From an uncultured Thermoleophilia bacterium (GTDB lineage: Bacteria > Actinomycetota > Thermoleophilia > UBA2241): a stretch of 64,000 nucleotides of DNA. The DNA lies in assembly GCA_963777895.1 (NCBI GenBank), contig CAVZSF010000005.1, positions 391,949-455,948 of the forward strand. The letters run 5' to 3'. Below, in pieces: positions 36,004 to 64,000 of the stretch (its first letter is position 1; each line of letters starts with the position of its first letter). The notes under the pieces were generated by a model. That model did not search any database and was not told where the DNA came from. It was given only the letters and a program-made list of their open reading frames with translations. The position numbers and the translations under genes were made by a program.

Positions 36004-36029
36004 TCGCCGCAGATGCGATGCGGGCCTGG

Positions 36030-37349: not shown

Positions 37350-37366
37350 GGTGGCTCCTTCGCCGG

Positions 37367-40800: not shown

Positions 40801-40843
40801 CGCTGGCGGGCGGGCCGGGGTCCGAACGTTACCGCGTCGCGGG

Positions 40844-42034
40844 TTACTGGGCCAGAGTCCAGTCTCCGCCCTTGATCTCGTACATGGAGAGGTCGTCCAC
40901 CGTCATGCCGTTGTGGTCCGTGGGGGAGAACGTGAACGTTCCGCCGATGCCGACGAAGCCGGAGGTCGCCTCGATCTGATCGCGCAGGGCCGCGGGCGTG
41001 ACATCGCCGTCGATGCGCTTGGCGGCCTCGACGATGAGGTAGAGGGCGTCGTAGGCGTGCCCGGCGAAGGTGCTCGGGGCGTCGCCGTAGGCCTGTGTGT
41101 AGCGATCGATGAAGTCGGTCGCCACCTTGAACGCTTCCGTGCCCTCGCCGTACGCCTCCGGGATCAGCACCTTGCCGGCGGCGAAGCGCACGCCCTCGGC
41201 GGCGTCGCCGGCGCCTTCGATGAACTCCCTGCGCGCGATGCCATGGCTGCCGAAGAACGGGAGGTCGATGCCGAGATCCATCACGTTCTTGGCGATGGTC
41301 GCGGCCTCGGCCCCGGCGGTCCACATCACGATGGCCTGGGCGTCGGAGTTCTTGATCTTGGTGAGCTGGGCCGTCATGTCGGTGTCGCCCGCGTTGAACG
41401 TCTGGTTCGAGACGATCGTCACGCCCGCATCGGGAGCCATCTTCTCGATGACGGCCTTGCCGTCGGCGCCGAAGCCGCCCGTGTCGGTGATGAGGCCGAT
41501 CTTCGTGATGCCCTGCTGCTTGATGTAGTCCAAGGTGAACGGGACGACGATGGTGTTCGACCAGGGGGTCTGGAAGACGAGCGGGTCGACGGGGTTCGCG
41601 ATCACGGTGCCGCCCGCCATGGAGACCTGGGGGATCTTGGCGCGCTGTACGTCGCCGCGCACCGCCATGGTCGCGCCCGTCCCGGTCCCGCCGATGATGG
41701 CGACGACCTCGTCCTGCTCGATGAGCTTGCTCGCCGCGGCGACCGCCTTGGCGTCGTCGGTCGCGTCGTCCTCGACGATGACCTCGATCTGCCGGCCGTT
41801 GACGCCGCCGGCGTCGTTGATGCGCTTGACCTCCATATCGAGCACGTTCTTCTCGGGCTGTCCGAGACCGGCGTACGTCCCCGTCAAGGAGACGATGGCG
41901 CCGATCTTGAGCGGCGCGCCCGAGCCGCTCGCCGCGGTGTCGTCCCCGCCGCAGGCGGTGAGCGACACCGCCAGCGACGCTGCGAGGGCGGCCGTCAGGA
42001 CCGCCATCGAGAGCTTCAACGTCCGTCCACGCAT
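40844..42034 (-). CDS. livK: Branched-chain/aromatic amino acid ABC transporter substrate-binding lipoprotein (LivK/LivJ-like)
   Basis: The start is at MRGRTLKLSMAVLTAALAASLAVSLTACGG (lipobox). Type I periplasmic binding fold. Confidence 0.8.
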   Translation of the reverse strand: MRGRTLKLSMAVLTAALAASLAVSLTACGGDDTAASGSGAPLKIGAIVSLTGTYAGLGQPEKNVLDMEVKRINDAGGVNGRQIEVIVEDDATDDAKAVAAASKLIEQDEVVAIIGGTGTGATMAVRGDVQRAKIPQVSMAGGTVIANPVDPLVFQTPWSNTIVVPFTLDYIKQQGITKIGLITDTGGFGADGKAVIEKMAPDAGVTIVSNQTFNAGDTDMTAQLTKIKNSDAQAIVMWTAGAEAATIAKNVMDLGIDLPFFGSHGIARREFIEGAGDAAEGVRFAAGKVLIPEAYGEGTEAFKVATDFIDRYTQAYGDAPSTFAGHAYDALYLIVEAAKRIDGDVTPAALRDQIEATSGFVGIGGTFTFSPTDHNGMTVDDLSMYEIKGGDWTLAQ

Positions 42035-42321
42035 GGTGCTGCCTCCGTAGGATCGCTGTCCGCTTCCGCCACGCGACAGGCTCGCAGGCGGCTTCTTCGC
42101 CGGTCCCCCTGGCACCCGGCTGTGAAGTGGTGCGCATAATAACACGCAGTTCAAGCAATAATGGCTGCATCTCCTTGCAGTGGGTTGCGGACGGCCCGCC
42201 TCGGGGGCCCGTGACCGATGGGTCGCGGGACGCCCGCGCTTCCCAACGGGAGTACTGATGGCATAGCAGGGAGAGGCTCGCGCGTGAGACCGTGCGGTGA
42301 AGCTGGAGGAGGAAGGCAGGC

Positions 42322-51227: not shown

Positions 51228-52196
51228 TCACTCGAGGTGCTGCTCGAGCAGCAGCGTCTCTTCGGTGAACCCGAGCGAGCGGTACAGGTGCTTGGCGCGC
51301 TCGTTCTCGAAGCCGGTGCCGATGCTGATCTCCGCGACGTCCTGCCGCTTGATGCGGGCGAGCGCCTCTTCGAGCAGCGCTCGCCCGATGCCCTGGTCCC
51401 GATACGCGCGAGTGACGGCCGCCTCGGCGATGATCACCGATCTTCTTGCGTGGAAGAGGCCACGGGCGAGCGTCCAGGTGACGACGCCGACGACGGCGCC
51501 GTCGAGCTCCGCGACGACGGCGCCGCAGGCGTCGTCACCGAGGAACTGCACGACCCAGTCGTCGGTAACCGGCGAGGGCTCCTCCCACTCGTCGGCCATC
51601 TCGCGTATGAGGCCGGCCATGGCCGCCGCGTCGGCGGCCGCCGCCGGCCGGATGGTCGCGCCGGCCGCCGCGGCTCCACGTGCTCGCCGGCGCGCCCGCG
51701 CCTCGCCGTTCTCGGTGTCGCTGCCGAAGCGTCGCTCCAGCCCGATCGTCTCGTCCCGGAACCCCAGCCGCCGGTAGAGCGTCAGGGCGGCCTCGTTGGT
51801 GGGCTGCGCCGCGATCTCGGCCACGTGCAGACCCATAGGCTCGAAGCGCCGCAGGGCGGTCTGCAGGAGTGCCGTGGCGATGCCCTGCCGCCGGTGGTCG
51901 GCACGCACCACGAGGTGGCCGACCTCGACACTGCGAGCCTCCCTGAAGAAGCTCGGGAACACGGCGTAGCTGAGCATCGCGACGACCGCCTCCCCGTCGC
52001 GCGCCACGAGCAGCCCGTTGTCGCTGCCCTCCATGAACCGGATCACATCCGACTCGTGTGCGTCGGACGTCTCCCCTTCGGCCTCGCGAAGCTCGGCGAG
52101 GAGCGCGATGACCACCCTCGCATCCGCCGGCGTCGCATCGCCGATGCTGAACGTAGCCGTGCCAGCCTCCTTCGGTCCGGGCAGGGCACCCGGCAC
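51228..52196 (-). CDS. Tandem two-domain GNAT acetyltransferase, paralog of the adjacent gene
   Basis: Domain 1 has HRRQGIATALL. Domain 2 has YRDQGIGRALL...ENERAKHLYRSLGF, nearly identical to the motif in the neighbouring gene. Confidence 0.7.
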   Translation of the reverse strand: MPGALPGPKEAGTATFSIGDATPADARVVIALLAELREAEGETSDAHESDVIRFMEGSDNGLLVARDGEAVVAMLSYAVFPSFFREARSVEVGHLVVRADHRRQGIATALLQTALRRFEPMGLHVAEIAAQPTNEAALTLYRRLGFRDETIGLERRFGSDTENGEARARRRARGAAAAGATIRPAAAADAAAMAGLIREMADEWEEPSPVTDDWVVQFLGDDACGAVVAELDGAVVGVVTWTLARGLFHARRSVIIAEAAVTRAYRDQGIGRALLEEALARIKRQDVAEISIGTGFENERAKHLYRSLGFTEETLLLEQHLE

Positions 52197-52284
52197 GCGC
52201 GGTCGGGCGCCGCGAGCGCGAGCTCAGACGGCGTTTCCCCTGCGAGCGCGTAGTATAGTCGCCAGCCTGAAGCGTACGAACGGC

Positions 52285-53580
52285 ATGGAGGCACGTTTGA
52301 ACCTGGAGACGTCGGCGCGCCTATACGAGGAGGCGCTCAAGTACATCCCCGGCGGCGTCAACTCGCCGGTGCGCGCCATGAAGGGCGTGGGCATGCCGCA
52401 TCCGCTCTTCGTGGCGCGCGGCAAGGGCGCCCACATCTGGGACGTCGACGGCAACGAGTACGTCGACTTCGTCTCGTCGTGGGGCCCGATGATCCTGGGA
52501 TGGGGCCACCCCGACGTGCTCGGCCGCCTGCACGCCGTCCTCGGCGACGGCACGAGCTTCGGCGCGCCCACGGCCGTGGAGATCGACCTTGCCCGCCTCA
52601 TCTGCGAGGCCGTGCCATCCGTCGAGCTCGTACGCATGGTCAACTCCGGGACCGAAGCGACGATGAGCGCCGTGCGCGTCGCCCGCGGCTTCACCGGCCG
52701 CGAGAAGATCGTGAAGTTCATCGGCTGCTACCACGGCCACTCGGACGCCTTCCTGGCGGCCGCCGGCAGCGGCGTGCTCACCCTGTCGCTCCCGGACAGC
52801 CCGGGCGTGACCAGGGGGACGACCGCCGACACCCTCCTGCTCGAGTACAACGACGTGGAGGGCCTGACGGCGCTGTTCGAGGAGCGCGGCGAAGAGATCG
52901 CCGCGCTCATCGTCGAGCCCGTGGCCGGCAACATGGGCGTCGTGCCTCCGCAGCCGGGCTTCCTGGAAGCCTGCCGCGAGCTGTGCACGCGCTTCGGCGC
53001 CGTCCTCATCTTCGACGAAGTGATCACCGGCTTCCGGGTGGCGTGGGGCGGGGCGCAGGAGCGCTTCGGCGTGCTGCCCGACCTCACGACGCTCGGCAAG
53101 ATCATCGGCGGGGGGCTCCCGGTGGGCGCCTTCGGCGGCCGCCGGGAACTCATGGAGACGGTGGCCCCGCTCGGCGCCACGTACCAGGCCGGCACGCTCT
53201 CGGGAAACCCGCTGGCGATGGCGGCCGGCGTGGCGACGCTCAGCGTCCTGTCGGAACCCGGCGTGTACGAGCGGCTGGAGGCGCTCGCCGCGCGCGCGGC
53301 GGCGGGCCTCGAGGAGGCCGCGGCGCAGGGCGAGCGCCCCGTCACGCTCAACCGTGTCGGCGCCATGATGACCATGTTCTTCTGTGGCGGTCCCGTCACG
53401 GGCTTTGCCGACGCGAAGCGAGCCGACACGGCCGCCTTCGCGTCCTACCACCGCCACATGCTGGAGCACGGCGTCTACCTCGCGCCCTCCCAGTTCGAGT
53501 CGGCCATGATCTCGCTGGCGCTGACCGACGACGACCTGGCGCAGGCGCGCGCGGCGGCGATGTCCTGGTTCGCCGGTTGA
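52285..53580 (+). CDS. hemL: Glutamate-1-semialdehyde 2,1-aminomutase
   Basis: A full-length class III aminotransferase with motifs YIPGGVNSPVRA and IFDEVITGFR. Confidence 0.95.
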   Translation: MEARLNLETSARLYEEALKYIPGGVNSPVRAMKGVGMPHPLFVARGKGAHIWDVDGNEYVDFVSSWGPMILGWGHPDVLGRLHAVLGDGTSFGAPTAVEIDLARLICEAVPSVELVRMVNSGTEATMSAVRVARGFTGREKIVKFIGCYHGHSDAFLAAAGSGVLTLSLPDSPGVTRGTTADTLLLEYNDVEGLTALFEERGEEIAALIVEPVAGNMGVVPPQPGFLEACRELCTRFGAVLIFDEVITGFRVAWGGAQERFGVLPDLTTLGKIIGGGLPVGAFGGRRELMETVAPLGATYQAGTLSGNPLAMAAGVATLSVLSEPGVYERLEALAARAAAGLEEAAAQGERPVTLNRVGAMMTMFFCGGPVTGFADAKRADTAAFASYHRHMLEHGVYLAPSQFESAMISLALTDDDLAQARAAAMSWFAG

Positions 53581-53592
53581 GAGGGGGAGATC

Positions 53593-54252
53593 ATGCGCGA
53601 CGGTGAGAAGCGCAGGGTGCCGTCGGTCACCGTGCCGCGGCTCGCGCTCTACCTGAGGAAGCTCCGCGAGTTGCGCGGGCGGGGCGTGACACGTGTCTCG
53701 TCTCGGGACCTGGCCGAGCTGATCGACCTGAACCCGGCCCAGATCCGCAAGGACTTCTCTTACTTCGGGGAGTTCGGCACACGTGGGGTGGGTTACGAGG
53801 TCGAGCGCCTGATCGACGAGATCACCCACTCGCTGGGGCTCGACCAGACCTGGAATCTTGTGATCGTCGGGGCCGGCCTGCTGGGCACAGCACTGGCGCG
53901 GTACCGCGGCTTCAGCGAGCAGGGGTTCAAGCTGATCGGCATGTTCGACGTCTCCGAGAAGGTGATCGGCGCCAGCTACGGCAGCGGCCGCGTCCAGTCG
54001 GTGGCCGAGCTCGAGGACTTCTGCGCGGCCAACCAGGTCGACATCGCCATCGTGGCGGTGCCGCCGGCGGACGCCCAGGCCACCGTCGACCGGCTGGTCG
54101 TCGCCGGCATCCGCGCCATCCTCAACTTCGCGCCCGTGAAGGTCAGCGTGCGTAAGGGCGTGACGGTGCGGCAGGTCGACCTCTCGAGCGAGCTGATGTT
54201 CCTCTCGTACTCGCTCGCCTCGGGCGCCGCCGGGGGCGACGAGTCGGCGTGA
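53593..54252 (+). CDS. rex: Redox-sensing transcriptional repressor Rex
   Basis: An N-terminal wHTH reads RLALYLRKLRELRGRGVTRVSSRDLAE. The Rossmann segment reads VIVGAGLLGTALA. Confidence 0.85.
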   Translation: MRDGEKRRVPSVTVPRLALYLRKLRELRGRGVTRVSSRDLAELIDLNPAQIRKDFSYFGEFGTRGVGYEVERLIDEITHSLGLDQTWNLVIVGAGLLGTALARYRGFSEQGFKLIGMFDVSEKVIGASYGSGRVQSVAELEDFCAANQVDIAIVAVPPADAQATVDRLVVAGIRAILNFAPVKVSVRKGVTVRQVDLSSELMFLSYSLASGAAGGDESA

Positions 54253-54727
54253 TGCGAGGCGGCAGGGGCGGCGGCGTGGCTTGCCGCGCAGCCTGGCGAT
54301 AGCGCGCATCGCGGGGTCGGCGCCTCTCCCTTCGGCGTGTCGTCCTCGCATCCGCCGGGGGCTGCGGTCTGCCACTGTGCCTGAGTATTTAGTACAACTC
54401 GCTGTATCTTGATTGACACTGCATCGGGCCGGGTGTAGACACGGTCTGCTCTTCTGTTTGCGTACGTCGTCTGCTCTCGATGACCCCGCCCGATCCCGGG
54501 CCTGCCATCGAGGCACAGGGGGATGTGAACGACCATCGCGGTGAAGCTGGCCTCTTTCTCCTCGCCGTGCCTCTGCATGCAGACGAACCCGGGCCTGCGT
54601 GGCCCCGCCCGGCCCATCCTCACGCTCCTCGACGCGGCGTGACCGTAGAAGGAGGTGACGACCGCAGGCTTCCTCAGGTCCTGTTCGTTCCCGAAGTCCT
54701 TTGAGGGCATCAGCATGGAGGCATCGA
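54253..54727 (+). promoter_or_regulatory. Long (475 nt) lower-GC leader/intergenic region upstream of the BMP-family transporter operon
   Basis: AT-rich segment ctgagtatttagtacaactcgctgtatcttgattgacactgc. Listed ORFs in this region lack coding-type third-position GC. Confidence 0.35.
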
Positions 54728-55822
54728 ATGCGAGAAGGTAAGTTCCACCGCGGGTTCGTCCTAGCGCTCGTCTTGATCGTCGTCCTCACCGTGTCAGTGG
54801 TCGCCGCCGCGTGCGGCCGCTCCGACGACACCGCCGAGCCTGCCTCGAGCGGAAGTGCAGTCGCCCAGCTCACCAAGATCGCGGTGATCACTCCCGAGAA
54901 GGGCAACGACTACGGCTGGAACCAGCAGGGTGTCGAAGGCGCCCAGGCGGCGGCCGACGCGATCGGCGCCGAGCTGATCGTGCAAGATGGCGCCGGGTAC
55001 GGCGACATCACCCCCATCATGGACCAGCTGGGCTCGGCCGGAGCGGAGTTCATCTTCCCGTGGGCCAGTGGCTACAACACGGTGGCCCCCCAGATGGCGC
55101 AGCAGCTGCAGATCCCGGTGACGGTCAGTGACCCCGGTACCGAAGAGGCGAACCAGCCGCAGCTCGTCCAGGCTATGGAGACCAACGGCCAGAACGGCGG
55201 CTACCTCGCAGGTGTGCTCGCGGGCAAGATGACCAAGTCCGGCACGGCGGCCATCGTGGTGTCGGCCGAGGACCTCAACTGGTCGAAGATGGCCGGCGGC
55301 TTCGTTGCCGGCGCCAAGTCGGTCGCTCCTGACATCAAGATCCTCTACGTGCAGATCGGCCAGGCCGCCTACGCCGACGCGGCGGGCGGCAAGCGCGTCA
55401 CCGCCAACGCCATCTCCGCGGGTGCGGACGTGGTCTTCGGGATGGGCGACGGCTCATCGTTCGGCATGATGCAGGCAGTCGAGACCGCGACGCCGCCGAG
55501 CGGCGCCGACAAGGTCTGGTTCATCGACGTGATCGGCGACAAGAGCCCGACCGACAAGAAGGGCGTTCTCCTGTCGTCGGTCCTGTGGGACTGGTCGACG
55601 CTCATGACGAAGGCGCTCACCGACTATGAGGCGGGCACCATGGGGACCGCCAGCTACTATCTCGACCTCGACAACGGCATGGGCCTGCTGCAGACGCAGT
55701 ACATCCCGGCCGACGTCTGGACCGCTTGCGAGGATGCCAAGGCGGGCGTCATGGACGGCAGCATCTCGGTGCCGACGCTGACCACCAGCAAGGAAGTCAA
55801 GGCCGCCATCGCGGGGCAGTGA
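54728..55822 (+). CDS. BMP family (PnrA/Med-like) ABC transporter substrate-binding lipoprotein
   Basis: Lipobox AAACG. Typical BMP fold pattern, e.g. KIAVITPEKGNDYGWNQQG. Confidence 0.8.
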   Translation: MREGKFHRGFVLALVLIVVLTVSVVAAACGRSDDTAEPASSGSAVAQLTKIAVITPEKGNDYGWNQQGVEGAQAAADAIGAELIVQDGAGYGDITPIMDQLGSAGAEFIFPWASGYNTVAPQMAQQLQIPVTVSDPGTEEANQPQLVQAMETNGQNGGYLAGVLAGKMTKSGTAAIVVSAEDLNWSKMAGGFVAGAKSVAPDIKILYVQIGQAAYADAAGGKRVTANAISAGADVVFGMGDGSSFGMMQAVETATPPSGADKVWFIDVIGDKSPTDKKGVLLSSVLWDWSTLMTKALTDYEAGTMGTASYYLDLDNGMGLLQTQYIPADVWTACEDAKAGVMDGSISVPTLTTSKEVKAAIAGQ

Positions 55823-55824
55823 CG

Positions 55825-57501
55825 ATGACCCTCGTCCCTCACGCGGGTGACGAGGCGGGCGGGCGCGGTCTGGTGACCGCGCCCGCCCCTGCTGCCGACG
55901 AGGCGGCCCCCGGGGAAGCCTCGCAGCCCGACATCGCCATCCAGCTCTGCGGTATCACCAAGGTCTTCCCCGGTGTTCGCGCCAACGACTGTGTGAACCT
56001 CATCGTGCGGCGCGGCGAAGTGCTGTGCCTGCTCGGCGAGAATGGCGCCGGCAAGTCGACGCTGATGAACGTCCTCGCCGGCATCTACATCCCCGAGGAA
56101 GGCACGATCCGTGTGGGCGGTGCGGACGTTTCCATCACCTGTCCGCGTGACTCGATCGACCTGGGCATCGGGATGGTGCACCAGCACAGCAGCCTGATCC
56201 CCAACTTCACCGTTCTCGAGAACCTGATGCTCGGGCAGGGCGAGGGTGTGCGGCTCAGCCTGAAGAAGGCGCAGGAGGGGCTGGCGAGGCTGGCCGGCAT
56301 GCTCGGCGTCGAGGTCGATCCCGACACCGAAGTGGCGCAGCTTTCGCTCGGCCAGCAGCAGCAGGTCGAGATCATCAAGGCGCTGTGGCAGGGCTCGAAG
56401 GTGCTCATCCTGGACGAGCCGACCTCGATGCTGACGCCGAAGGGTATCGAGGACCTGGAACGGGTCCTCATGCACCTCAAGGAAGAGGGCCTTGCGATCG
56501 TCTTCATCACCCACAAGCTCCACGAGGCGTTCACCATCGGCGACTGCGTCGCGGTCCTCCGGCAGGGACGTCTCGAGGGAGGCGTCGACAGCGACTGCAT
56601 GAGAGCCTCGACGCCCGAGGAGCTTCAGCGCATGGTGGTCGAGCTCATGTTCCCCGGCGAAGCCGAGAGCCTGGCCAATGTCGCCGAGCTGCGCGACCTC
56701 GCGGAGCTGGGCGGGACAGGCCGCAAGGCAGAAGTGGGCGAGCCGTTGCTCGAGCTCGACGGTGTGACCGTCGCCGGGCGGCGCGGCGAGATCGGCATCG
56801 CAGAAGGATTCTCGCTCACCGTGCACGCCGGCGAAGTGGTCGGCATCGCCGGGGTAGACGGGAACGGGCAGCGGCCGCTGGCCGAAGCCATCGCCGGCCA
56901 GCGAACGCTGGCGAGCGGAGATGTCAGGCTCGCGGGGACCTCGCTGCGCAAGCTCAGCGTCGGTGCGCGGCAGCGGCTCGGGCTGCGCTACGTGACCGAC
57001 GACCGGCTCGGCGAAGGCATCGTGGGGCCGCTCAGCGTCGCCATCAACCTCGTGAGCAAGCGCATCGGCACGCCTCCCTTCTGGGTGCACGGCCGCACCA
57101 GGCCCGAGGCGATCGACGAGAACGCGCACGTGCTGGTGGAGGAGTACGGCATCAAGACCCCTTCCATCCACACCCACGCCGGATCGCTCTCGGGCGGCAA
57201 CGCCCAGAAGGTGGTCGTCGCGCGCGAGCTCTCCTTCGATCCGAAGGTCGTGGTGTTCAACAAGCCCACCTACGGGCTTGACGTGAAGACGACCGCCGCC
57301 GTCCGGGCTCATATCCGAGAGCTGGTCGACGGCGGCACGGCAGGCGCCCTCGTCATCTCCACGGACCTCGAGGAGCTGCTCGTGCTCAGCGACCGGGTCG
57401 CGGTGCTGTCGCGGGGTCACCTCATGGGGGTCGTCCAGAACAAGCCCGGCGCGGAACAAGAGATCGGCGCCCTGATGATCGGAGGGAGCCACAGTGAGTG
57501 A
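55825..57501 (+). CDS. ABC transporter ATP-binding protein with duplicated ATPase domains (BMP-type uptake system)
   Basis: Walker A GENGAGKSTL in domain 1 and a signature/Walker B in domain 2. It starts 3 nt after the upstream stop. Confidence 0.85.
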   Translation: MTLVPHAGDEAGGRGLVTAPAPAADEAAPGEASQPDIAIQLCGITKVFPGVRANDCVNLIVRRGEVLCLLGENGAGKSTLMNVLAGIYIPEEGTIRVGGADVSITCPRDSIDLGIGMVHQHSSLIPNFTVLENLMLGQGEGVRLSLKKAQEGLARLAGMLGVEVDPDTEVAQLSLGQQQQVEIIKALWQGSKVLILDEPTSMLTPKGIEDLERVLMHLKEEGLAIVFITHKLHEAFTIGDCVAVLRQGRLEGGVDSDCMRASTPEELQRMVVELMFPGEAESLANVAELRDLAELGGTGRKAEVGEPLLELDGVTVAGRRGEIGIAEGFSLTVHAGEVVGIAGVDGNGQRPLAEAIAGQRTLASGDVRLAGTSLRKLSVGARQRLGLRYVTDDRLGEGIVGPLSVAINLVSKRIGTPPFWVHGRTRPEAIDENAHVLVEEYGIKTPSIHTHAGSLSGGNAQKVVVARELSFDPKVVVFNKPTYGLDVKTTAAVRAHIRELVDGGTAGALVISTDLEELLVLSDRVAVLSRGHLMGVVQNKPGAEQEIGALMIGGSHSE

Positions 57502-58633
57502 CGTCACGAGCGAGGGCATCCTTGCTGTTCCGATGCCGGCATCGGTGTGGCACCGCGGGGCGAGTGCGTTCTGGCGCGCCGCCGGGCCGGTAGCCTACGG
57601 CCTGATCGCCGGCGGCGTCCTGCTGCTCATCATGGGCAAGAACCCGCTCTCCTTCTACTGGACCACGCTTGAGAGCGGGCTGCTCACCTGGGGCGGCCTC
57701 GTGCAGACCATCATCCGGCTGGCGCCGCTGCTGCTGATGTCGGCGGGGTTCATCGTCGCCTTCCAGGCGGGTCTGTGGAACATCGGCGGCGACGGGCAGT
57801 TCCTCATGGCGGCCGCCATGGTCGGTGGACTCGGCGCGTCGATGATGGGTGCGATGCCCTTCTGGCTTGCGCTCATCCTGCTGTGCCTGATCGGCTTTGC
57901 GGTGGGCGGCGCCTGGACGATCGTGCCCTCGTTCCTCAAGGCCTACTACGGCATGAACGAGATCATCACGAGCCTGATGATGGCCTACCTGGGCATCAAT
58001 CTCGCCAACATGCTCATCAAGGGACCCTTCCTCACTGACACGGGGTTCGTCCCGCAGACGAACCTCATCCCGTTCGACTACCTGCTCCCGTACATCCCGG
58101 GCTCCCGTATCCACGTCGGCATCATCATCGCCCTCGTGGTGCTCGCCATCGTGCACTACATGCAGACGAGGACCGGCTACGGGCTGCGCCTGCGCGTCCT
58201 GGGGGCGAACCCCAAGGCGGCGGTCCATGCGGGCATCAACGTGAAGAAGGACATCATGACCGCCTTCTTCCTGAGCGGCGCTCTCATCGGGCTTGCGGCG
58301 GCGGTCGAGGTGCTCGGCGTGTGGGGCTACGTGCGCGCCGACTGGAACCCCGCGTTCGGCATGACGCTCTTTGCGATCGTCTTCCTCGCGGGCCTCAACG
58401 TGATGGTGGTCATCCCGTTCGTGTTCTTCTTCGCCGTCATCCAGATAGGCGGTCACGAGGCGGCCCGCCAGGCCGGCCTCCCCAACGACTTTCTCCTGCT
58501 GCTGATCGGCCTGATCCTGTTCTTCATGGTGCTCACCGAATGGGCGCGCGGGCGGGACTGGTCCAACAAGGCGCGCAAGAAGACGGCGTCCGGCGCGCTT
58601 GCCGACGGGCCGGAGGCGGTGGACCATGCATGA
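57494..58633 (+). CDS. ABC transporter permease (BMP-type)
   Basis: 379 aa multi-TM protein overlapping the ATPase stop. Confidence 0.8.
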   Translation: MSDVTSEGILAVPMPASVWHRGASAFWRAAGPVAYGLIAGGVLLLIMGKNPLSFYWTTLESGLLTWGGLVQTIIRLAPLLLMSAGFIVAFQAGLWNIGGDGQFLMAAAMVGGLGASMMGAMPFWLALILLCLIGFAVGGAWTIVPSFLKAYYGMNEIITSLMMAYLGINLANMLIKGPFLTDTGFVPQTNLIPFDYLLPYIPGSRIHVGIIIALVVLAIVHYMQTRTGYGLRLRVLGANPKAAVHAGINVKKDIMTAFFLSGALIGLAAAVEVLGVWGYVRADWNPAFGMTLFAIVFLAGLNVMVVIPFVFFFAVIQIGGHEAARQAGLPNDFLLLLIGLILFFMVLTEWARGRDWSNKARKKTASGALADGPEAVDHA

Positions 58634-59561
58634 CCTCCTGACCGCGGACTTCCTGGCCGCCCTCATCTCGGGCGCCATCCTCGCCGGTATGCCGCTGCTG
58701 CTGGCGGCGCTCGGCGAGACCATCTCGGAGCAGGGCGGCCTGCTGAACATCGGCCTCGAGGGCATGATGCTCCTCGGCGCCTACGCGGGCTTCGTGGTCG
58801 CCAACTCGACCGGCTCGTCGTGGCTCGGCTTCCTCGCGTCCATTCTCGCGGGCATGGCCGTGGCCATGCTGATGGTCGTCTTCTGCGTGCGCATGGGACG
58901 CGACCAGATCGTCGTCGGCATCGCCATCCTGCTCGCCATGGAGGGTTTGACGAGCCTGCTGCACGCGGCGCAGTTCGGCGAAAGCTACCCGCGCCTCGAC
59001 AACGTGCCGAACGTCCCGCTGCCCGGCCTCAACGACATCCCCGTGCTCGGACCCAGCATCTTCAGCCAGCCCTTGATCGTGTACATCGGGATCGCGCTGA
59101 TCTTCGTGGTCGGCTGGGTGCTCTACAAGACGAACCTGGGGCTCAACATCCGGGCGGCGGGATGGAAGCCGGTCGCGCTCGACAACGCCGGCGTGGACGT
59201 GCTCAAGATCCGCACCATCGCCGTTCTGGCCACCGGCGCCCTGGCCGGCTTGGGCGGCGGCTACATGTCGATCGTCACGGCCGGCATCTTCGTGCCGTTC
59301 ATGACGGGCGGCCTCGGGTTCATCGCCATCGTCATCGCGATGCTCGGCCGCGGCCGACCGGGATGGGTCTTTGTCGGCTCCCTGCTCTTCGGCGTGGCTC
59401 TCTCGATCGCCACGGCGCTGCAGCTCGTCGGCATCAACGTGTCCACTGATGTGGTGCAGATGCTACCGTTCCTCACCGTCATCGTGGCTCTCGCCCTGTT
59501 CGCGCGGCAGTCGTATCTGCCGGCGGCCCTCGCGACGCCGTTCGTGAGGGGACAGCGATGA
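58626..59561 (+). CDS. ABC transporter permease (BMP-type)
   Basis: Multi-TM protein starting MHDLLTADFLAALISGAIL. Confidence 0.8.
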   Translation: MHDLLTADFLAALISGAILAGMPLLLAALGETISEQGGLLNIGLEGMMLLGAYAGFVVANSTGSSWLGFLASILAGMAVAMLMVVFCVRMGRDQIVVGIAILLAMEGLTSLLHAAQFGESYPRLDNVPNVPLPGLNDIPVLGPSIFSQPLIVYIGIALIFVVGWVLYKTNLGLNIRAAGWKPVALDNAGVDVLKIRTIAVLATGALAGLGGGYMSIVTAGIFVPFMTGGLGFIAIVIAMLGRGRPGWVFVGSLLFGVALSIATALQLVGINVSTDVVQMLPFLTVIVALALFARQSYLPAALATPFVRGQR

Positions 59562-59595
59562 CGGGCCCGGGTCCGAACGGAAAGGTGTGAGGCGA

Positions 59596-60759
59596 ATGGC
59601 TCGCTCCCCCGAATTCATCATGACAGCGGGACCAGTCCAGCTCTCGGACAGGGTCCGATCGGCTCTGGGCGGCCCGCTGCTGTTCGACTACACGCCAGAT
59701 TTCATGGCGCTCTTCCGTGACACCGAGGAGAAGTTCAAGGAGTTCCTGCAGACGCGCAACGACATCGTGATGATGCAGGGAGAGGCCCTGCTCGGGCTGG
59801 AGGCCATCTCGGTCTGCGGCCTGGACGACGGCGACGCGGTCATCAACGTCGAGAGCGGGCACTACGGCGAGGGCAACCGCTACTTCATCGAGAAGTACGG
59901 CGGCACGGCCATCCCGGTGGAGACACCCTGGAACACCGTGGTCCAGCCGGAACAGCTCGAAGCCGTGCTCAAGGCGCACCCGGAGGCGAAGATCCTCTGG
60001 CTGGTCCACTGCGAGACTCCCTGCGGGACTCAGGCCGACCTCGGGACACTGGCGAAGCTGGGCAAGCAGTACGGCAAGCTCGTCTTCGTCGACTCGGTGA
60101 GTTGTGCCGGCAGCGTCCCGGTGCGCGTCGACGAGTGGGGAATCGACATCGTCTCGGTCGGCTCCCAGAAGGTGCTCGGTGCTCCGCCCGGGTTGAGCGC
60201 CATGTCCATCTCGGACGCCGCCTGGGACCTCTTTCGCAACGTGAAGAAGCCGAACCGCTACTCGTACTTCAGCATCCTCGATTGGAAGGAGCTGTGGCTC
60301 GAGAAGGAGATCTGGCCGTACACGGCCTCGACCGCCGAGGTGGCGGCCCTGAACGCCGCCGTCACCGAGTATCTCGAGATCGGCCACGAGGAGAACTTCC
60401 GCCGCTATGCGGAGGTGAGCCGGGCGACGCGCGCCGGTGTCCGGGCGATGGGGCTGGAGCTGTGGGCCGACAGCGAGGAACACGCCGCCGCGGTCGCGAC
60501 CGCCGTCGCCATACCCGAGGGCATTGACGACGAGGAGCTGAGGTCGCGCATGCGAGACCAGTTCGGCGTCTTGATCTCGGGCAGCCTCTTCAACACCCCC
60601 ATCTACGGCAAGCTCGTGCGCATCGGCCACATGGGGAGGACGTGCAGCCCGACGTATGCCCTGGCTGCCCTGGCCGCCATGGGTCACTCCTTCAACCAGA
60701 TGGGGCACGCGGTGAACGTCGGGGCCGGCATCGAAGCTGCGTTAGCGGCATTGGACTGA
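59596..60759 (+). CDS. Class V aminotransferase (AGXT/PhnW-like, PLP-dependent)
   Basis: The PLP-lysine context reads VDIVSVGSQKVLGAPPGLS. About 388 aa. Confidence 0.8.
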   Translation: MARSPEFIMTAGPVQLSDRVRSALGGPLLFDYTPDFMALFRDTEEKFKEFLQTRNDIVMMQGEALLGLEAISVCGLDDGDAVINVESGHYGEGNRYFIEKYGGTAIPVETPWNTVVQPEQLEAVLKAHPEAKILWLVHCETPCGTQADLGTLAKLGKQYGKLVFVDSVSCAGSVPVRVDEWGIDIVSVGSQKVLGAPPGLSAMSISDAAWDLFRNVKKPNRYSYFSILDWKELWLEKEIWPYTASTAEVAALNAAVTEYLEIGHEENFRRYAEVSRATRAGVRAMGLELWADSEEHAAAVATAVAIPEGIDDEELRSRMRDQFGVLISGSLFNTPIYGKLVRIGHMGRTCSPTYALAALAAMGHSFNQMGHAVNVGAGIEAALAALD

Positions 60760-60779
60760 GCGAAGGGAGTAGTTGCGCC

Positions 60780-61190
60780 GTGAACCACGTCCAGTTCCAT
60801 GAGGAGAAGTGCATCGCGTGCGACATGTGCTCGCAGGTCTGCGCGCTGAGCAAGCTCGACCGGGTGCAGACTGCCGGAGCGTGCATCAAGATCACCCGGG
60901 ACCCTTCGGAGTACATGGGCGGCATGCGCTGTTCCGTGTGCGACATGTCGCACGACAGGGTCTGCGTCGACGCGTGTCCCACGGAGGCCTTGGTGTACGA
61001 CGAGGCCGCCGGGGTGATCAGGTTCGTGCAGGACCTCTGCAGCGAGTGCGACGCTTGCCTCGACGCGTGTCCGCACGTCCATGTCGACGCCGTCACCCAC
61101 AGGATCATGATCTGTGACCTCTGCGACGGCGATCCCCTTTGCGTCCAGTGGTGTCCCGAAGGCGCGCTCACGTGGGAGGCTCGGTCATGA
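60780..61190 (+). CDS. 4Fe-4S polyferredoxin (electron-transfer subunit for AOR)
   Basis: Several CxxCxxCxxxCP clusters: CIACDMCSQVCA, CSVCDMSHDRVCVDACP, CSECDACLDACP, CDLCDGDPLCVQWCP. Confidence 0.75.
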   Translation: MNHVQFHEEKCIACDMCSQVCALSKLDRVQTAGACIKITRDPSEYMGGMRCSVCDMSHDRVCVDACPTEALVYDEAAGVIRFVQDLCSECDACLDACPHVHVDAVTHRIMICDLCDGDPLCVQWCPEGALTWEARS

Positions 61191-63001
61191 AGTACGGCGG
61201 CTACACCGGCAAGTTCCTCACCGTCGATCTGAGCGCCCGGTCCTTCGGCGAGATGCCGGTGACAGATGAGCTCGCCGAGCACTATCTCGGCGGTCGCGGG
61301 TTCGTCGCCAAGCTGCTCTACGACTTGCTGCCTCGCGGCATCGACCCGCTCGGCCCCGAGAACGTGATCGTCTTCGCGACCGGGCCGGCAACGGGCACGA
61401 TGATCCCGACCGCGAGTCGCATCGCGGTGGGCGTGAAGAGCCCGCAGACCGGCACGATCTCGGCGAGCTACATGGGCGGGCACTTCGGCCCGGAGCTCAA
61501 GTACGCGGGCTGGGACGGCATCGTCATCACGGGCGTCTCCGAGAGCCCGGTGACGCTGGTCGTCGACGACGACCGGATCGAGCTACGGGATGCGACGGCG
61601 CTCTGGGGCAAGGACACCGTCGAAGCCCAGGCTCTCCTGTCGCGCGATCTCGGCGAGGACTTCAAGACGGGCGCCATCGGGCCCGGCGGTGAGAACGGCG
61701 TCGTGTACGGCACGTTCATGCACGTGCAGCACGCCGCCGGCCGCGGCGGCCCGGGAGCCGTGTTCGGCAGCAAGAGGCTCAAGGCCGTGGCGGTCCGCGG
61801 CACCGGCGGCGTACGCGTCAGCGGCCCGACCGCCGACTACATCGCGGCCTGTAAGGAGCTGCACGACATCATCATGGAGAACCCCGTGCGCCCCGCCTTC
61901 CGGTGGGCGGGCACGACCGGCATGCTGCCCGTCGTGAACGAAGCGGTCGGCCTGCCATACAGGAACCACCAGGACGACCGCGCCCCTGACGTCGCCCCCA
62001 TCCACAACGAGGAGCTCGCGAAGTACGTGCAGCACTACGAGGCCTGCAGCGGGTGCAACGTGATCTGCGGCTCGGTGGTCGAGTTCGAACGCAACGGCAA
62101 GGCGTACCGGTCCGAGCGCATCGAGCACGAGTCGATGTGGGCGCTCGGACCGAACTGCGGCATCGTCGACCTCCCGGCGATCATGGAGGCCAACTGGCTC
62201 TGCGACCGCCTGGGCATCGACACGATGAGCGCGGGGTCTGCGATCGCCTGGGCCATGGAGATGACCGAGAAGGGCCTGCTCACCTCCGCAGACACCGACG
62301 GCCTCGACTTCACGTTCGGCAACGCCGACGTCCTCAGCGAGGCCGTGACCCGCATCGCGGCGAAGCAGGGCTTTGGTGAAGCGCTCGCGCAGGGTGCGCG
62401 CGGCGCGGCGCGGCGCTTCGGCAAGGGCGAGGAATACGCGATGCAGGTGAAGGGCCTGGACCTGTCGGCTTACGCGCCGCGGGCCTTCAGTGGCATGGGG
62501 CTCTCGTTCGCCACGACCGCTCGAGGCGCCGATCACAACAAGGCCTTCACCGTCGCGGCCGAGTTTCTCGGCGTGCTCGGCGACTACGATCGGTTCTCGC
62601 TCGAGGGCAAGCCTCATCTCGTCAAGACGATGCAGGACAGCACGGCGATCATCGACTCGCTGATCATGTGCATGTTCACCGTCGACCTGGGCATCAGCGT
62701 TGAGCTGTACGCGCGCTGCGCGAGCCTTCCGACCGGCATGCAGATCACGGCTGACGACGTGTACACGATCGGCGAGCGCATCAACACCGTGGAGCGCCTC
62801 TTCAACATGCAGGAGGGCTTCACGCGCAGCGACGACACCCTGCCTCGGCGGTTCGCGAGCGAAGCGGCGCCGTCGGACGAGGGACAGCACACGCTCGACG
62901 TCGATGCGGTGATGGACGAGTACTACGCCGAGCGCGAATGGGACGCCGCCGGCAACCCGACTCTCGAGCTGCTGGACCGGCTCGGCATCGGGTCGGCATG
63001 A
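61187..63001 (+). CDS. Tungsten-containing aldehyde:ferredoxin oxidoreductase (AOR family)
   Basis: MKYGGYTGKFLTVDLS N-terminus. 605 aa with AOR family conservation throughout. ATGA overlaps the ferredoxin stop. Confidence 0.9.
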   Translation: MKYGGYTGKFLTVDLSARSFGEMPVTDELAEHYLGGRGFVAKLLYDLLPRGIDPLGPENVIVFATGPATGTMIPTASRIAVGVKSPQTGTISASYMGGHFGPELKYAGWDGIVITGVSESPVTLVVDDDRIELRDATALWGKDTVEAQALLSRDLGEDFKTGAIGPGGENGVVYGTFMHVQHAAGRGGPGAVFGSKRLKAVAVRGTGGVRVSGPTADYIAACKELHDIIMENPVRPAFRWAGTTGMLPVVNEAVGLPYRNHQDDRAPDVAPIHNEELAKYVQHYEACSGCNVICGSVVEFERNGKAYRSERIEHESMWALGPNCGIVDLPAIMEANWLCDRLGIDTMSAGSAIAWAMEMTEKGLLTSADTDGLDFTFGNADVLSEAVTRIAAKQGFGEALAQGARGAARRFGKGEEYAMQVKGLDLSAYAPRAFSGMGLSFATTARGADHNKAFTVAAEFLGVLGDYDRFSLEGKPHLVKTMQDSTAIIDSLIMCMFTVDLGISVELYARCASLPTGMQITADDVYTIGERINTVERLFNMQEGFTRSDDTLPRRFASEAAPSDEGQHTLDVDAVMDEYYAEREWDAAGNPTLELLDRLGIGSA

Positions 63002-63013
63002 GGTGAGGCGTGG

Positions 63014-63253
63014 ATGACCGTGAAGGTCGTGCTGTTCGGCAACCTTGCGCGCCTGCTGCCAGAGGGGTCGACCCACAACAGCGCGCTCGTGACGGTGGAA
63101 CACGGAGCGACCGTGGAAACGTTGCTGGACGGCCTGGGCGTGCCGCCCGACAGTCGGGGCTACGTGACTGTGAACGGCGAGCACTCCGTTCGGGACACGG
63201 TTCTCAACGAGGCCGACGAGGTGCGCGTGATCGTGCCTCTGTGCGGGGGTTGA
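63014..63253 (+). CDS. MoaD/ThiS family sulfur-carrier protein
   Basis: 79 aa ending in GG with a beta-grasp pattern. Confidence 0.7.
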   Translation: MTVKVVLFGNLARLLPEGSTHNSALVTVEHGATVETLLDGLGVPPDSRGYVTVNGEHSVRDTVLNEADEVRVIVPLCGG

Positions 63254-63338
63254 GGACCTTGCCGAGCCGGGGAGGGGGCGCAGGAAGGTGAAGGACCATG
63301 GAGACGATCGCGGCGCGGGCACGGCCGAGCTCGTGAGG

Positions 63339-64000
63339 CCGAGGGCGCGCAGGGGCGGCATCCCGCTCTACTACCGTGTGATGCGAGACCTCAAGGAGCA
63401 GATCGTCTCGGGCAGGCTGGCGCCGGGTGACCGGCTACCGTCCGAGACGGAATTCACGCATCGCTACTCGGTGAGCCGTGTGGTCGTGCGGCGCGCCCTG
63501 CAGATCCTTCAGGAGCAGGGTCTGGTCATCAGGCTAAAGGGCAAGGGCACGTATGTCGCCAAGGGGAACGCTCGCGAGGCGACGCTGCGCGTGAGCGGCA
63601 GCCTCGAGGACCTCATCCAGATCGGCGCGGGCACCACCATCAAGGTGGTCGAGTTCCGCATGGTCAAGATCAGCCAGGACGTTGCCGAGGTGTTTGGTGA
63701 CACCGAAGGCGACGACATCTTCCACGTCAAGCGCGTGCGCTTCGTCGGAGGCAGTCCGCTGGCCGTGATGAAGAACTACGTGCCGTACTCGATCGCCTCG
63801 TGCATCTCGTTGAACGAACTCACCACGACGCCCCTGATCACGCTCATCGAGGAGCGCGGTGGCTGCCGGATCGAGTGGGCCTCGCAGGTCTTTCAGGCGG
63901 TCGCCGCCGACGACGAGCTGGCGGATCTGCTCGAGGTGGACACGCTGACGCCGCTGCTCAAGCTCACCCTGACCGTCTACTCGACCGAGGGGCGCGTGGT
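63339..64000 (+). CDS. GntR/HutC family transcriptional regulator, 3'-partial (runs off the window)
   Basis: Read by hand in frame 0 from GTG 63339 (or ATG 63381). The HTH reads LPSETEFTHRYSVSRVVVRRALQILQEQGLV and is followed by a UTRA domain. No stop occurs before the window end. Confidence 0.75.

Follow-up and report, generated by a model that had tools for sequence, protein, structure and literature searches.

What compound is taken up and oxidised by the nine genes at positions 54728-64000 of a 64,000-nucleotide stretch of DNA from an uncultured Thermoleophilia bacterium (contig CAVZSF010000005.1; the whole stretch is called the window below)? The genes encode a BMP-family ATP-binding cassette (ABC) importer, a class V aminotransferase, a polyferredoxin, an aldehyde oxidoreductase of the tungsten-type AOR family (AOR1), a MoaD-like protein and a GntR-family regulator, and an earlier note on this DNA had read them as a route from an imported amine through an aldehyde to an acid. 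That logic is supported by the family assignments and by the relatives of the locus, and vitamin B6 can now be proposed as the substrate. From sequence comparisons, we consider it rather probable that the nine genes belong to an island for vitamin B6 catabolism and cover its uptake and upper pathway, in which a tungsten-type AOR would replace NAD-dependent enzymes.

The module holds nine intact genes on the + strand, tightly packed, with zero internal stop codons and a purine-rich stretch resembling a ribosome-binding site before each start, and the G+C content of 54.7-64 kb is about 66-69%. Intergenic distances are, in gene order, +2, -8, -8, +34, +20, -4, +12 and +34 nt, and with neighbours at -8 to +34 nt the earlier wording of 'largely overlapping' genes is fair. 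Start codons were refined against gene calls on the near-identical contig L001 (numbers with L denote loci or contigs that were compared); the longest open reading frame (ORF) starts too far upstream for several of the nine genes. For MoaD, a 93-aa ORF at 63010-63291 is in the wrong frame, and the MoaD-like gene lies at 63014-63253. Pfam domains along the operon are Bmp, ABC_tran (twice), BPD_transp_2 (in two genes), Aminotran_5, a Fer4 dicluster, AFOR_N with AFOR_C, ThiS, and GntR with UTRA; all nine co-directional genes named before were found, and Pfam supports every family assignment. The features, including a candidate operator discussed below, are as follows.

54728-55822, + strand: BMP-family substrate-binding protein (SBP), a lipoprotein of 364 aa with signal peptide and lipobox ...VAAAC; Pfam Bmp 85.7 bits
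55825-57501, + strand: tandem ABC ATPase, 558 aa; Pfam ABC_tran in two stretches; start matches the 558-aa gene on L001
57494-58633, + strand: ABC permease, 379 aa; BPD_transp_2; NF047929 402.5 bits
58626-59561, + strand: ABC permease, 311 aa; BPD_transp_2; NF047928 436 bits
59596-60759, + strand: class V aminotransferase, 387 aa; NF046070 is the best NCBIfam family and 2Z9U the best PDB match
60780-61190, + strand: polyferredoxin for 4x[4Fe-4S], 136 aa; four Cys motifs; proposed electron-transfer subunit of the AOR
61187-63001, + strand: AOR-family pterin (W or Mo) aldehyde oxidoreductase AOR1, 604 aa; AFOR_N 247 bits, AFOR_C 410 bits
63014-63253, + strand: ThiS/MoaD-like protein, 79 aa; Pfam ThiS 34 bits; translation ends in ...PLCGG
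63288-64000, + strand: GntR/UTRA regulator of the HutC subfamily, cut by the window end; Pfam GntR 72 bits, UTRA 83 bits
54392-54407, no strand (.): candidate operator GTACAACTCGCTGTAT, an imperfect palindrome 336 bp upstream of the SBP start codon

The importer gives a first indication of the substrate. NCBIfam models of a 'putative B6 ABC transporter' (NF047927-NF047930) match its four subunits end to end: the SBP reaches 379 bits against NF047927 ('putative B6 ABC transporter SBP', cut-off 400), the ATPase 661 bits against NF047930 ('B6 ABC transporter ATP-binding protein', cut-off 670; runner-up family 322), the 379-aa permease 402.5 bits against NF047929 ('B6 ABC transporter permease subunit 2'), which exceeds the cut-off of 400, and the 311-aa permease 436 bits against NF047928 ('B6 ABC transporter permease subunit 1', cut-off 465). 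For all four subunits the B6 models are by far the best NCBIfam match, one above its cut-off and three at 92-99% of it; compared with the NCBIfam family as a known system, the importer matches all four models, but three of four fall just under the equivalog cut-offs. Among solved structures, the closest relative of the SBP scores 65 bits and PnrA/TmpC 28 bits, and the SBP is, by its sequence, remote from the characterised BMP/PnrA nucleoside binders. Thus, the previous assignment as a nucleoside- or purine-type importer does not hold, with 28 bits to PnrA/TmpC vs 379-661 bits to the B6 models. In a literature search, a publication on the NCBIfam B6 ABC transporter family was not found, and the BMP transporter is not among the systems described in two papers on the comparative genomics of B6 salvage.

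The aminotransferase points to the same vitamin. Its best NCBIfam family is NF046070, pyridoxamine--pyruvate transaminase (PPAT), at 353 bits, followed by BhcA at 174 bits and the PhnW types at 131 bits or less; its best PDB match is 2Z9U, the PPAT of Mesorhizobium loti, at 284 bits, followed by PucG at 168 bits. The enzyme, which had been described as AGXT/PhnW-like, is better called specifically PPAT-like on these scores (353 bits vs at most 131 for PhnW types, and 2Z9U at the top of the PDB matches). Equivalents of PPAT residues Glu68, Tyr95, Thr146, Asp171, Lys197 and Arg345 are all kept in the window protein, and the same six (with Tyr or Phe at 95) are kept in nearly all 76 aligned family members. 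In M. loti PPAT, Lys197 is said to form the Schiff base with pyridoxal, Arg336 and Arg345 to bind the carboxylate of the amino or keto acid, and Glu68 reportedly blocks the phosphate pocket, leading to specificity for pyridoxal rather than pyridoxal 5'-phosphate (PLP).

Two further observations concern aminotransferase relatives. One Actinomycetes metagenome-assembled genome (MAG) carries two paralogues on contig CAVRZA010000001.1 (L008 and L009; 144785-165945 and 282284-303444), 81% and 79% identical to the window's enzyme; one is inside a full AOR module and the other beside a GntR-FCD regulator, and next to the latter gene neither a BMP-type transporter nor an AOR was detected. A lead in Peptoclostridium acidaminophilum (PPAT-like match of 35% on a megaplasmid), an anaerobe with a known W-AOR, was rejected, the context being unrelated and free of AOR and transporter genes.

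How general is the link between importer and aminotransferase? An alignment of aminotransferase homologues was scanned against one genome per GTDB species, which gave 80 loci, followed by tblastn and ORF clustering. In about 60 of the 80 loci a BMP-ABC transporter is linked to the aminotransferase, and the linked loci span Gaiellales, Solirubrobacterales, Microbacteriaceae, Thermomicrobiales/Chloroflexota, Deltaproteobacteria, Spirochaetota and Verrucomicrobiota. Loci that lack the AOR instead carry a short-chain dehydrogenase/reductase (SDR), directly downstream of the aminotransferase in about 10 of them, whose best NCBIfam match is SDR-type pyridoxal 4-dehydrogenase (222 bits, cut-off 325); a metallo-beta-lactamase-fold (MBL-fold) protein with 4-pyridoxolactonase as best match (271 bits, cut-off 325); and a 3-hydroxyacyl-CoA-dehydrogenase-fold (3HCDH) protein with FHMPC dehydrogenase as best match (378 bits, cut-off 500). 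Also common there is a protein of the class II aldolase family, presumably the family of HMPDC decarboxylase, together with Mo-hydroxylase subunits, NicX-like proteins and cupins. On a plasmid of Rhizobium daejeonense, a gene that RefSeq names pyridoxamine--pyruvate transaminase occurs with a lactonase, SDRs, a GntR regulator, a BMP ABC transporter, a GMC oxidoreductase and a '2,5-dihydroxypyridine 5,6-dioxygenase'. The pairing of transporter and aminotransferase, previously thought uncharacterised, is on this comparative evidence the common core of clusters of the B6-degradation type, present in about 60 of the 80 loci. The same R. daejeonense locus (L093; NZ_CP048425, 121794-146942), which belongs to an aerobe, has in addition to its NicX-type dioxygenase two amidases and a two-component flavin hydroxylase, which suggests that even rhizobia may have a branch of B6 degradation with ring cleavage of the NicX type, unlike the MHPC-oxygenase route.

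The neighbourhoods with and without the AOR differ in a consistent manner. Genes within about 10 kb of the aminotransferase were counted in 12 loci with polyferredoxin and AOR and in 69 loci without. The SDR occurs in 0/12 of the former vs 16/69 of the latter, the class II aldolase in 0/12 vs 18/69, the lactonase in 1/12 vs 13/69 and the FHMPC-dehydrogenase-like protein in 1/12 vs 17/69; conversely, UbiD occurs in 7/12 vs 2/69 and an iron-type alcohol dehydrogenase (Fe-ADH) in 5/12 vs 2/69. The slot directly downstream of the aminotransferase is filled by polyferredoxin and AOR here and by the SDR elsewhere. This pattern is the signature expected of a non-orthologous replacement of NAD-dependent steps by AOR/UbiD chemistry. 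The window lacks pyridoxal 4-dehydrogenase and 4-pyridoxolactonase, as do 11-12 of the 12 loci with AOR; hence the module is a variant, and not a member, of B6 degradation pathway I.

To which clade does AOR1 belong? Its 604 aa form a full-length AFOR_N plus AFOR_C architecture, and it scores 417 bits to 9MQX, 410 to 1AOR (Pyrococcus furiosus AOR), 397 to AorB of 8C0Z, 371 to 9G7J and 342 to WOR83, vs 281 to FOR, 220 to WOR5 and 213 to BamB in the PDB and 58 to GAPOR in NCBIfam. In a phmmer alignment to 1AOR, AOR1 keeps the [4Fe-4S] ligands Cys288/291/295/494 (CxxCxxxC plus Cys494) as well as the catalytic Glu313 and His448 and the pterin-binding Asp338 and Asp489. Because of this ranking of bit scores and the conserved cluster, catalytic and pterin residues, AOR1 is placed in the AOR clade sensu stricto with a predicted aldehyde-oxidising activity, and not with BamB-type reductases; a BamB-type or other non-aldehyde assignment, which the earlier note had named as a result that would refute it, finds no support (380-417 bits to Pf AOR, AorB and 9MQX vs 213 to BamB). 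In a neighbour-joining tree, AOR1 and a second AOR described below (AOR2) form two separate cross-phylum clades, both apart from Pf AOR, AorB and 9MQX; the tree was built on BLOSUM distances and is coarse, and the identity tiers of the homologues agree with it.

The polyferredoxin has 17 Cys residues, 16 of them in four Cys-rich [4Fe-4S] motifs, and its PDB matches include the small subunit of WOR5 (6X1O_B, 53 bits), AorA (8C0Z_C, 52 bits) and 9MQX_E (46 bits); its stop codon overlaps the AOR1 start by 4 nt. The MoaD-like protein would have a role in pterin cofactor maturation. This combination of polyferredoxin, AOR and MoaD-like protein, and with it the cofactor logic proposed before, agrees with aorA, aorB and the MoaD-like aorD/aorE of Aromatoleum (PMC6365974), where the aor operon of A. 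aromaticum encodes AorA with four clusters, AorB, the FAD protein AorC and two MoaD-like proteins, aorD/aorE. In AorABC of A. aromaticum EbN1 (PDB 8C0Z), which we group with the AOR of Moorella thermoacetica as one of the closest known systems, the catalytic subunit is 38% identical to AOR1 (397 bits), the small subunit with four [4Fe-4S] clusters is likewise encoded directly upstream, and a MoaD-like gene is also in the operon. However, an AorC-like FAD/NAD-binding gene was found neither between nor beside the polyferredoxin, AOR and MoaD-like genes in the window, L001, L083 and L084. Thus NAD coupling is unlikely, and the module is AorAB-like and not a member of the three-subunit type. AOR_Aa has a broad substrate spectrum and has been shown to reduce acids (PMC6365974); it serves phenylalanine catabolism, whereas AOR1 is embedded in what looks like one specific pathway and forms its own clade. 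P. furiosus AOR (39% identical, 410 bits) shares all [4Fe-4S] ligands, Glu313, His448 and the pterin Asp residues, but is a single-subunit homodimer from a hyperthermophilic archaeon that works with free ferredoxin on a broad range of aldehydes, and AOR1 comes with a dedicated polyferredoxin, in a high-GC bacterium and in a pathway-specific context. The tungsten, ferredoxin reduction and oxygen sensitivity of the earlier reading stay putative, and the metal may be W or Mo.

The association of AOR1 with the aminotransferase extends well beyond the Thermoleophilia. Closest homologues of the aminotransferase, AOR and UbiD are found in Thermoleophilia (Actinomycetota) MAGs, and the nine-gene order is complete in L003-L006 and L009, present with assembly frameshifts in L010 and L013, and rearranged in L012 and L055; L007 is a 4-kb fragment. 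As a check on the earlier proposal, the operon is kept as a unit in at least nine other Thermoleophilia species loci, and its core of aminotransferase, polyferredoxin and AOR also occurs in other phyla. AOR1 homologues fall into tiers of 72-88% identity (Thermoleophilia) and 49-59% (labelled Chloroflexota, Deltaproteobacteria or Thermodesulfobacteriota), after which identity drops to 42-43%. Six of six second-tier AOR1 genes sampled on long contigs have a class V aminotransferase and a small ferredoxin directly upstream or within 5 kb, and these islands also carry PreA-like, UbiD, 3HCDH, NicX-like, cupin and Mo-hydroxylase genes; in L026 and L054, from the genome scan, aminotransferase and polyferredoxin likewise adjoin AOR1. 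The linkage of AOR1 and aminotransferase thereby spans Chloroflexota, Deltaproteobacteria-type and SAR324 genomes. Several second-tier loci use an SSF symporter as transporter and a protein with helix-turn-helix (HTH) and cupin domains as regulator; hence the core of aminotransferase, polyferredoxin and AOR1 is conserved independently of uptake and regulation. Judged from gene neighbourhoods, AOR1 is a dedicated cross-phylum subfamily, linked to the aminotransferase in all members sampled.

Some relatives carry additional genes. A Zn-dependent alcohol dehydrogenase, missing from the window, directly follows AOR1 in L004:13357-14466, L005:10123-11157 and L084:4553-5587; in L004 and L005 it lies between AOR1 and the MoaD-like gene, and in L055:14632-15666 it comes after the regulator. 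This enzyme could funnel pyridoxine into the pathway. An ECF-type transporter stands beside aminotransferase and AOR1 in two second-tier loci (L087:12143-15558 and L090:16734-19930), adding to or replacing the BMP ABC system, and is made up of CbiQ/EcfT, two ATPases and an S component from the ECF-ribofla_trS family; among ECF transporters, S components that take pyridoxamine are known. Some sample or isolate names of the hosts hint at anoxic habitats and a DsrC gene lies beside one island (L092), which is weak evidence.

What follows the regulator? The window ends within this gene, and a 251 kb ENA metagenome contig (L001), 99.1% identical to window 53008-64000, together with L083, extends the locus. 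The module continues past the regulator with about 17 kb of functionally linked genes on L001/L083, so that only the first third of an island of about 27 kb falls to the nine genes. On the same strand of this same-species contig, the regulator is followed by Fe-ADH, AOR2 (34% identical to AOR1), ABC transporter fragments and UbiD; then by a PreA/dihydroorotate-dehydrogenase-like protein with a Fer4 tail and the FAD, 2Fe-2S and Mo subunits of a hydroxylase of the xanthine-dehydrogenase family; and finally by YqeC, a MocA-type nucleotidyltransferase, XdhC, a 301-aa protein, a Pfam NicX-family protein, a cupin and a small ThiS-like protein. Gene order is shared by a cleaner related contig (L084/L085), where YqeC and MocA are fused; they are separate on the same-species contig. 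The 303-aa protein of L084 is YqeB, with 344 bits against a cut-off of 220, and YqeC reaches 133 bits against a cut-off of 73; YqeB and YqeC are NCBIfam markers for selenium-dependent molybdenum hydroxylases, and the ~301-aa unannotated gene of the same-species contig occupies the position of YqeB in L084. The series of three-subunit Mo hydroxylase, YqeC plus MocA and then YqeB covers L084:12900-18951, and its counterpart L083:12905-19696. For the NicX-like protein, no sequence-level match to solved structures and no NCBIfam match was obtained.

Some details of these contigs are recorded here. At L083:5200-10000, between AOR2 and UbiD, about 4.8 kb hold fragments of a second BPD_transp_2/ABC_tran transporter, which are either pseudogenes or the result of long-read frameshifts; in L084, AOR2 abuts UbiD directly. 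AOR1 and Fe-ADH are split in L001, and the AOR1 of the window is intact. L055 carries three AORs. One AOR1 fragment in the protein database (P0302) has an AIRS (SelD-type) domain, and its source names the fragment SelD.

Regulation can be considered in the same way. The regulator, 272-288 aa at full length on L001/L002 (about 288 aa in L002), has HutC as its best NCBIfam match at 111 bits, far under the cut-off, and is by its domains (winged HTH plus UTRA) a GntR regulator of the HutC subfamily and not HutC itself; the call of a HutC-type GntR regulator is thus borne out by the GntR and UTRA scores of 72 and 83 bits. It follows MoaD in 9 of the 12 loci with polyferredoxin and AOR. The 16-bp motif GTACAACTCGCTGTAT at 54392-54407 is the single match in the 64-kb window with one mismatch allowed (expected 0.04). 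L003, L004, L005, L010 and L013 each have one copy, ahead of the SBP gene, and the L004 copy is a perfect palindrome of 20 bp, TAATACAAGTACTTGTATTA; as the search pattern itself came from these sites, the counts are partly circular. The motif came from a targeted TACA...TGTA search, and a generic search for shared inverted repeats in the upstream regions gave nothing convincing. We regard GTACAACTCGCTGTAT as a reasonable candidate operator, to which the HutC-type regulator may bind. A second copy was not found before the Fe-ADH block. Scans of 54000-64000 gave no promoter-like site for sigma-70 and one weak terminator-like hairpin, in the leader, which is below chance expectation, and an Rfam scan of the whole window found no family, hence no known riboswitch in the 475-bp leader.

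Directly upstream of the module (52018-54252) lie hemL (Aminotran_3) and rex (Put_DNA-bind_N plus CoA_binding), with ALAD and radical-SAM/SPASM genes further up. Rex (53593-54252), which precedes the SBP gene in L004 and L011 as well, was considered as the module's regulator and rejected, belonging to the hemL/ALAD/radical-SAM heme neighbourhood; the pairing is reminiscent of the rex-hem operon of Streptomyces.

Beside the observed gene content, family assignments, conserved residues, synteny and replacement, we infer the substrates, direction, metal, electron acceptor and regulation in the following scheme. The BMP-type ABC importer would take up a non-phosphorylated B6 vitamer, most likely pyridoxamine, and the PPAT-like enzyme would move its 4'-amino group to a 2-oxo acid; we propose pyridoxamine + pyruvate -> pyridoxal + L-alanine. 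AOR1 with its four-cluster polyferredoxin (AorAB-type) would then oxidise pyridoxal to 4-pyridoxate in one step, bypassing the lactone and replacing the NAD-dependent pyridoxal 4-dehydrogenase and the 4-pyridoxolactonase of the aerobic pathway, with electrons passing to ferredoxin or another low-potential acceptor, while the MoaD-like protein would serve maturation of the pterin cofactor. Repression of the operon by the HutC-type regulator is probable, through the palindrome ahead of the SBP gene, and would be lifted when a B6-derived effector binds. Beyond the window, Fe-ADH would oxidise the 5'-hydroxymethyl group of 4-pyridoxate, a role that an FHMPC-dehydrogenase-like 3HCDH enzyme may take in islands of the SAR324/Deltaproteobacteria type (the FHMPC dehydrogenase reaction of M. 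loti is reversible). From the aldehyde so formed, AOR2 would make the 4,5-dicarboxylate, which UbiD would decarboxylate, and the Mo hydroxylase (selenium-dependent type), the PreA-like Fe-S flavoreductase, the NicX-like protein and the cupin would act on the ring. As a plausible but speculative bioenergetic rationale, the PreA-like reductase with its Fer4 tail may draw on low-potential electrons from the two AORs.

A bolder version of this scheme is tentative, and we would put it at clearly less than even chance: the island may carry out a complete, essentially oxygen-independent mineralisation of vitamin B6, with two tungsten AORs, a UbiD dependent on prenylated FMN (prFMN), a selenium-dependent Mo hydroxylase and no oxygenase. 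The AORs would act on pyridoxal and on 5-formyl-3-hydroxy-2-methylpyridine-4-carboxylate, feeding reduced ferredoxin, and the Mo hydroxylase, the ferredoxin-linked PreA-like reductase and the NicX-like protein would hydroxylate, reduce and open the pyridine ring.

Several facts weigh against vitamin B6 as the substrate. Environmental concentrations of B6 are low, and some related natural pyridine could be the true substrate. NCBIfam itself names the transporter 'putative', and the B6 labels on neighbouring families in the sister loci are also best matches under cut-off. The equivalog cut-off of NF046070 is 600, of which the aminotransferase reaches only 353, although NF046070 still leads by 179 bits; because of this score and an identity of only 38% to M. 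loti PPAT, the enzyme is PPAT-like, not proven PPAT. Moreover, PPAT Arg336 is Leu in the window protein, beside a 2-residue insertion. This loss was rejected as a sign of altered function: the position is Gln, Tyr, Leu or Phe in other members, and Arg is missing in all 76 examined, those of classical B6-type clusters included, so that its absence, which holds for all members outside M. loti, is uninformative. Being missing in every other member from the 80 loci, Arg336 is specific to the rhizobial enzyme; given its loss, the amino acceptor may differ from that of PPAT. On the cofactor side, no tungstate or molybdate transporter, moeA or moaA was found among the annotated window genes (~10 small or unannotated ORFs left out), and neither a ferredoxin acceptor nor a tungstate or molybdate transporter or moeA was seen in the window or its flanks.

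The same scores leave room for a generic amine-catabolic module, in line with the earlier note, which would run the same amine-to-aldehyde-to-acid chemistry on a non-B6 amino compound such as an aminomethyl-heteroaromatic, a benzylamine-type compound or a plant pyridine, e.g. a pyridoxine derivative. The aminotransferase and the sister-locus enzymes all stay under their equivalog cut-offs (353/600, 222/325, 271/325 and 378/500), the 38% identity to M. loti PPAT is modest, the SBP has no close solved relative of known ligand, and AORs are typically broad-spectrum (PMC6365974). However, the best matches of the four transporter subunits, the aminotransferase and the sister-locus SDR, lactonase and FHMPC dehydrogenase all point to B6 degradation, a RefSeq-validated PPAT is in the same kind of cluster and the PPAT-specific Glu68 is conserved; downstream, an alcohol dehydrogenase, a second aldehyde oxidiser and a decarboxylase correspond in number and order to the two side chains of B6 that can be oxidised. 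We judge such a module unlikely, although it deserves the most serious hearing among the alternatives.

Vitamin B6 as substrate is also compatible with salvage or homeostasis, in which pyridoxamine would go to pyridoxal and PLP with the AOR as a safety valve against excess reactive pyridoxal, or the AOR would run in reverse on reduced ferredoxin and reduce 4-pyridoxate, an abundant waste product, to pyridoxal, pulled by the aminotransferase. The PPAT reaction is reversible. Given low-potential electrons, AORs can reduce acids, as AOR_Aa does (PMC6365974), and 4-pyridoxate is described as commonly excreted and non-salvageable (bioRxiv 10.64898/2026.01.20.700305), so that a salvage route would be valuable. 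Yet a pdxK or pdxH kinase/oxidase gene is not in the island, the module is co-conserved with about 15 catabolic-type genes (those for UbiD, AOR2, the NicX-like protein, the cupin, and the Mo hydroxylase and its maturation), and in sister loci the equivalent position holds a catabolic dehydrogenase and a lactonase; salvage therefore appears improbable to us. Adjacency could, finally, be fortuitous, if polyferredoxin, AOR and MoaD formed a general detoxifying or fermentative unit beside a B6 uptake and transaminase operon. Several AORs are indeed nearby (AOR2 in L001/L083; three in L055), and gaps of 34 and 20 nt flank the aminotransferase. But the order aminotransferase, polyferredoxin, AOR1 persists in several phyla at AOR identities of 51-88%, also where SSF symporter and HTH-cupin protein stand in for ABC transporter and GntR regulator, AOR1 forms its own clade, and AOR1 and SDR are mutually exclusive in the loci; we disfavour this explanation and give it very little credence.

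How does the B6 catabolic reading relate to known pathways? B6 degradation pathway I of M. loti MAFF303099 and Pseudomonas MA-1 runs through PPAT, pyridoxal 4-dehydrogenase, 4-pyridoxolactonase, 4-pyridoxic acid dehydrogenase, FHMPC dehydrogenase, HMPDC decarboxylase, MHPC oxygenase and AAMS hydrolase. The island resembles it in the PPAT-type entry, in the predicted series of pyridoxal, 4-pyridoxate, 5' side-chain oxidation and decarboxylation, and in the GntR-family regulator and BMP ABC importer that are linked to PPAT in the annotated Rhizobium cluster. It differs in having polyferredoxin and AOR1 for pyridoxal 4-dehydrogenase and lactonase, AOR2 for FHMPC dehydrogenase, UbiD for the class II aldolase-type decarboxylase and Fe-ADH for the GMC-type alcohol dehydrogenase; no flavin monooxygenase of the MHPC-oxygenase kind is among the called genes, which instead include the Mo hydroxylase, PreA-like reductase and NicX-like protein.

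These last genes, outside the window, recall nicotinate catabolism, which in the anaerobe Eubacterium barkeri uses a Se-dependent Mo nicotinate dehydrogenase and a ferredoxin-dependent 6-hydroxynicotinate reductase, and in the aerobic nic cluster of Pseudomonas putida uses NicAB, NicC and NicX. The likeness lies in the three-subunit Mo hydroxylase with YqeB/YqeC/MocA, the PreA-like flavoreductase and the NicX-family protein, and the decarboxylated B6 ring would be a substituted hydroxypyridine or nicotinate analogue; the island's NicX-like protein differs in lacking a solved-structure or NCBIfam match. To our knowledge, only aerobic routes of bacterial vitamin B6 degradation are known. A literature search found no anaerobic B6 degradation route and none linked with UbiD, and likewise no report combining PPAT with AOR, linking a tungsten AOR with pyridoxal oxidation or linking NicX with B6. 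The aerobic pathway and the transporter are known to database curators, and the AOR/UbiD/Fe-ADH variant appears undescribed.

The remainder of the window concerns other functions. Positions 1-34000 and 36000-42200 encode M42 and S15 peptidases, a GH4 glycosidase with a PfkB kinase, a sugar-type ABC SBP, GtrA/PMT-like glycosyltransferases, ApbE, a HAMP histidine kinase and a PaaK-like AMP-ligase with a Liv-type ABC transporter, genes that bear no relation to W/Mo cofactor supply.

Tungsten AORs are usually viewed as broad-spectrum aldehyde scavengers whose physiological substrates are unclear. Two AOR subfamilies with specific substrates predicted from context would make a physiological AOR role directly testable, and the finding is also a substrate prediction for a widespread BMP-family transporter. 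Moreover, it provides a candidate set of about 25 genes, in several phyla, for an N-heterocycle pathway that would combine W, Mo/Se, prFMN and Fe-S chemistry. If the oxygen-independent version is true, it would be the first anaerobic B6 degradation route, and in AOR1 an AOR would for the first time have a dedicated physiological substrate that derives from a cofactor, common to Thermoleophilia, Chloroflexota and sulfate-reducer-type Deltaproteobacteria/SAR324. The island bears on the recycling of B6 vitamers and 4-pyridoxate in anoxic soils, sediments and digesters, and its spread indicates that an essential vitamin may be consumed by many Actinomycetota and Chloroflexota that are still uncultured.

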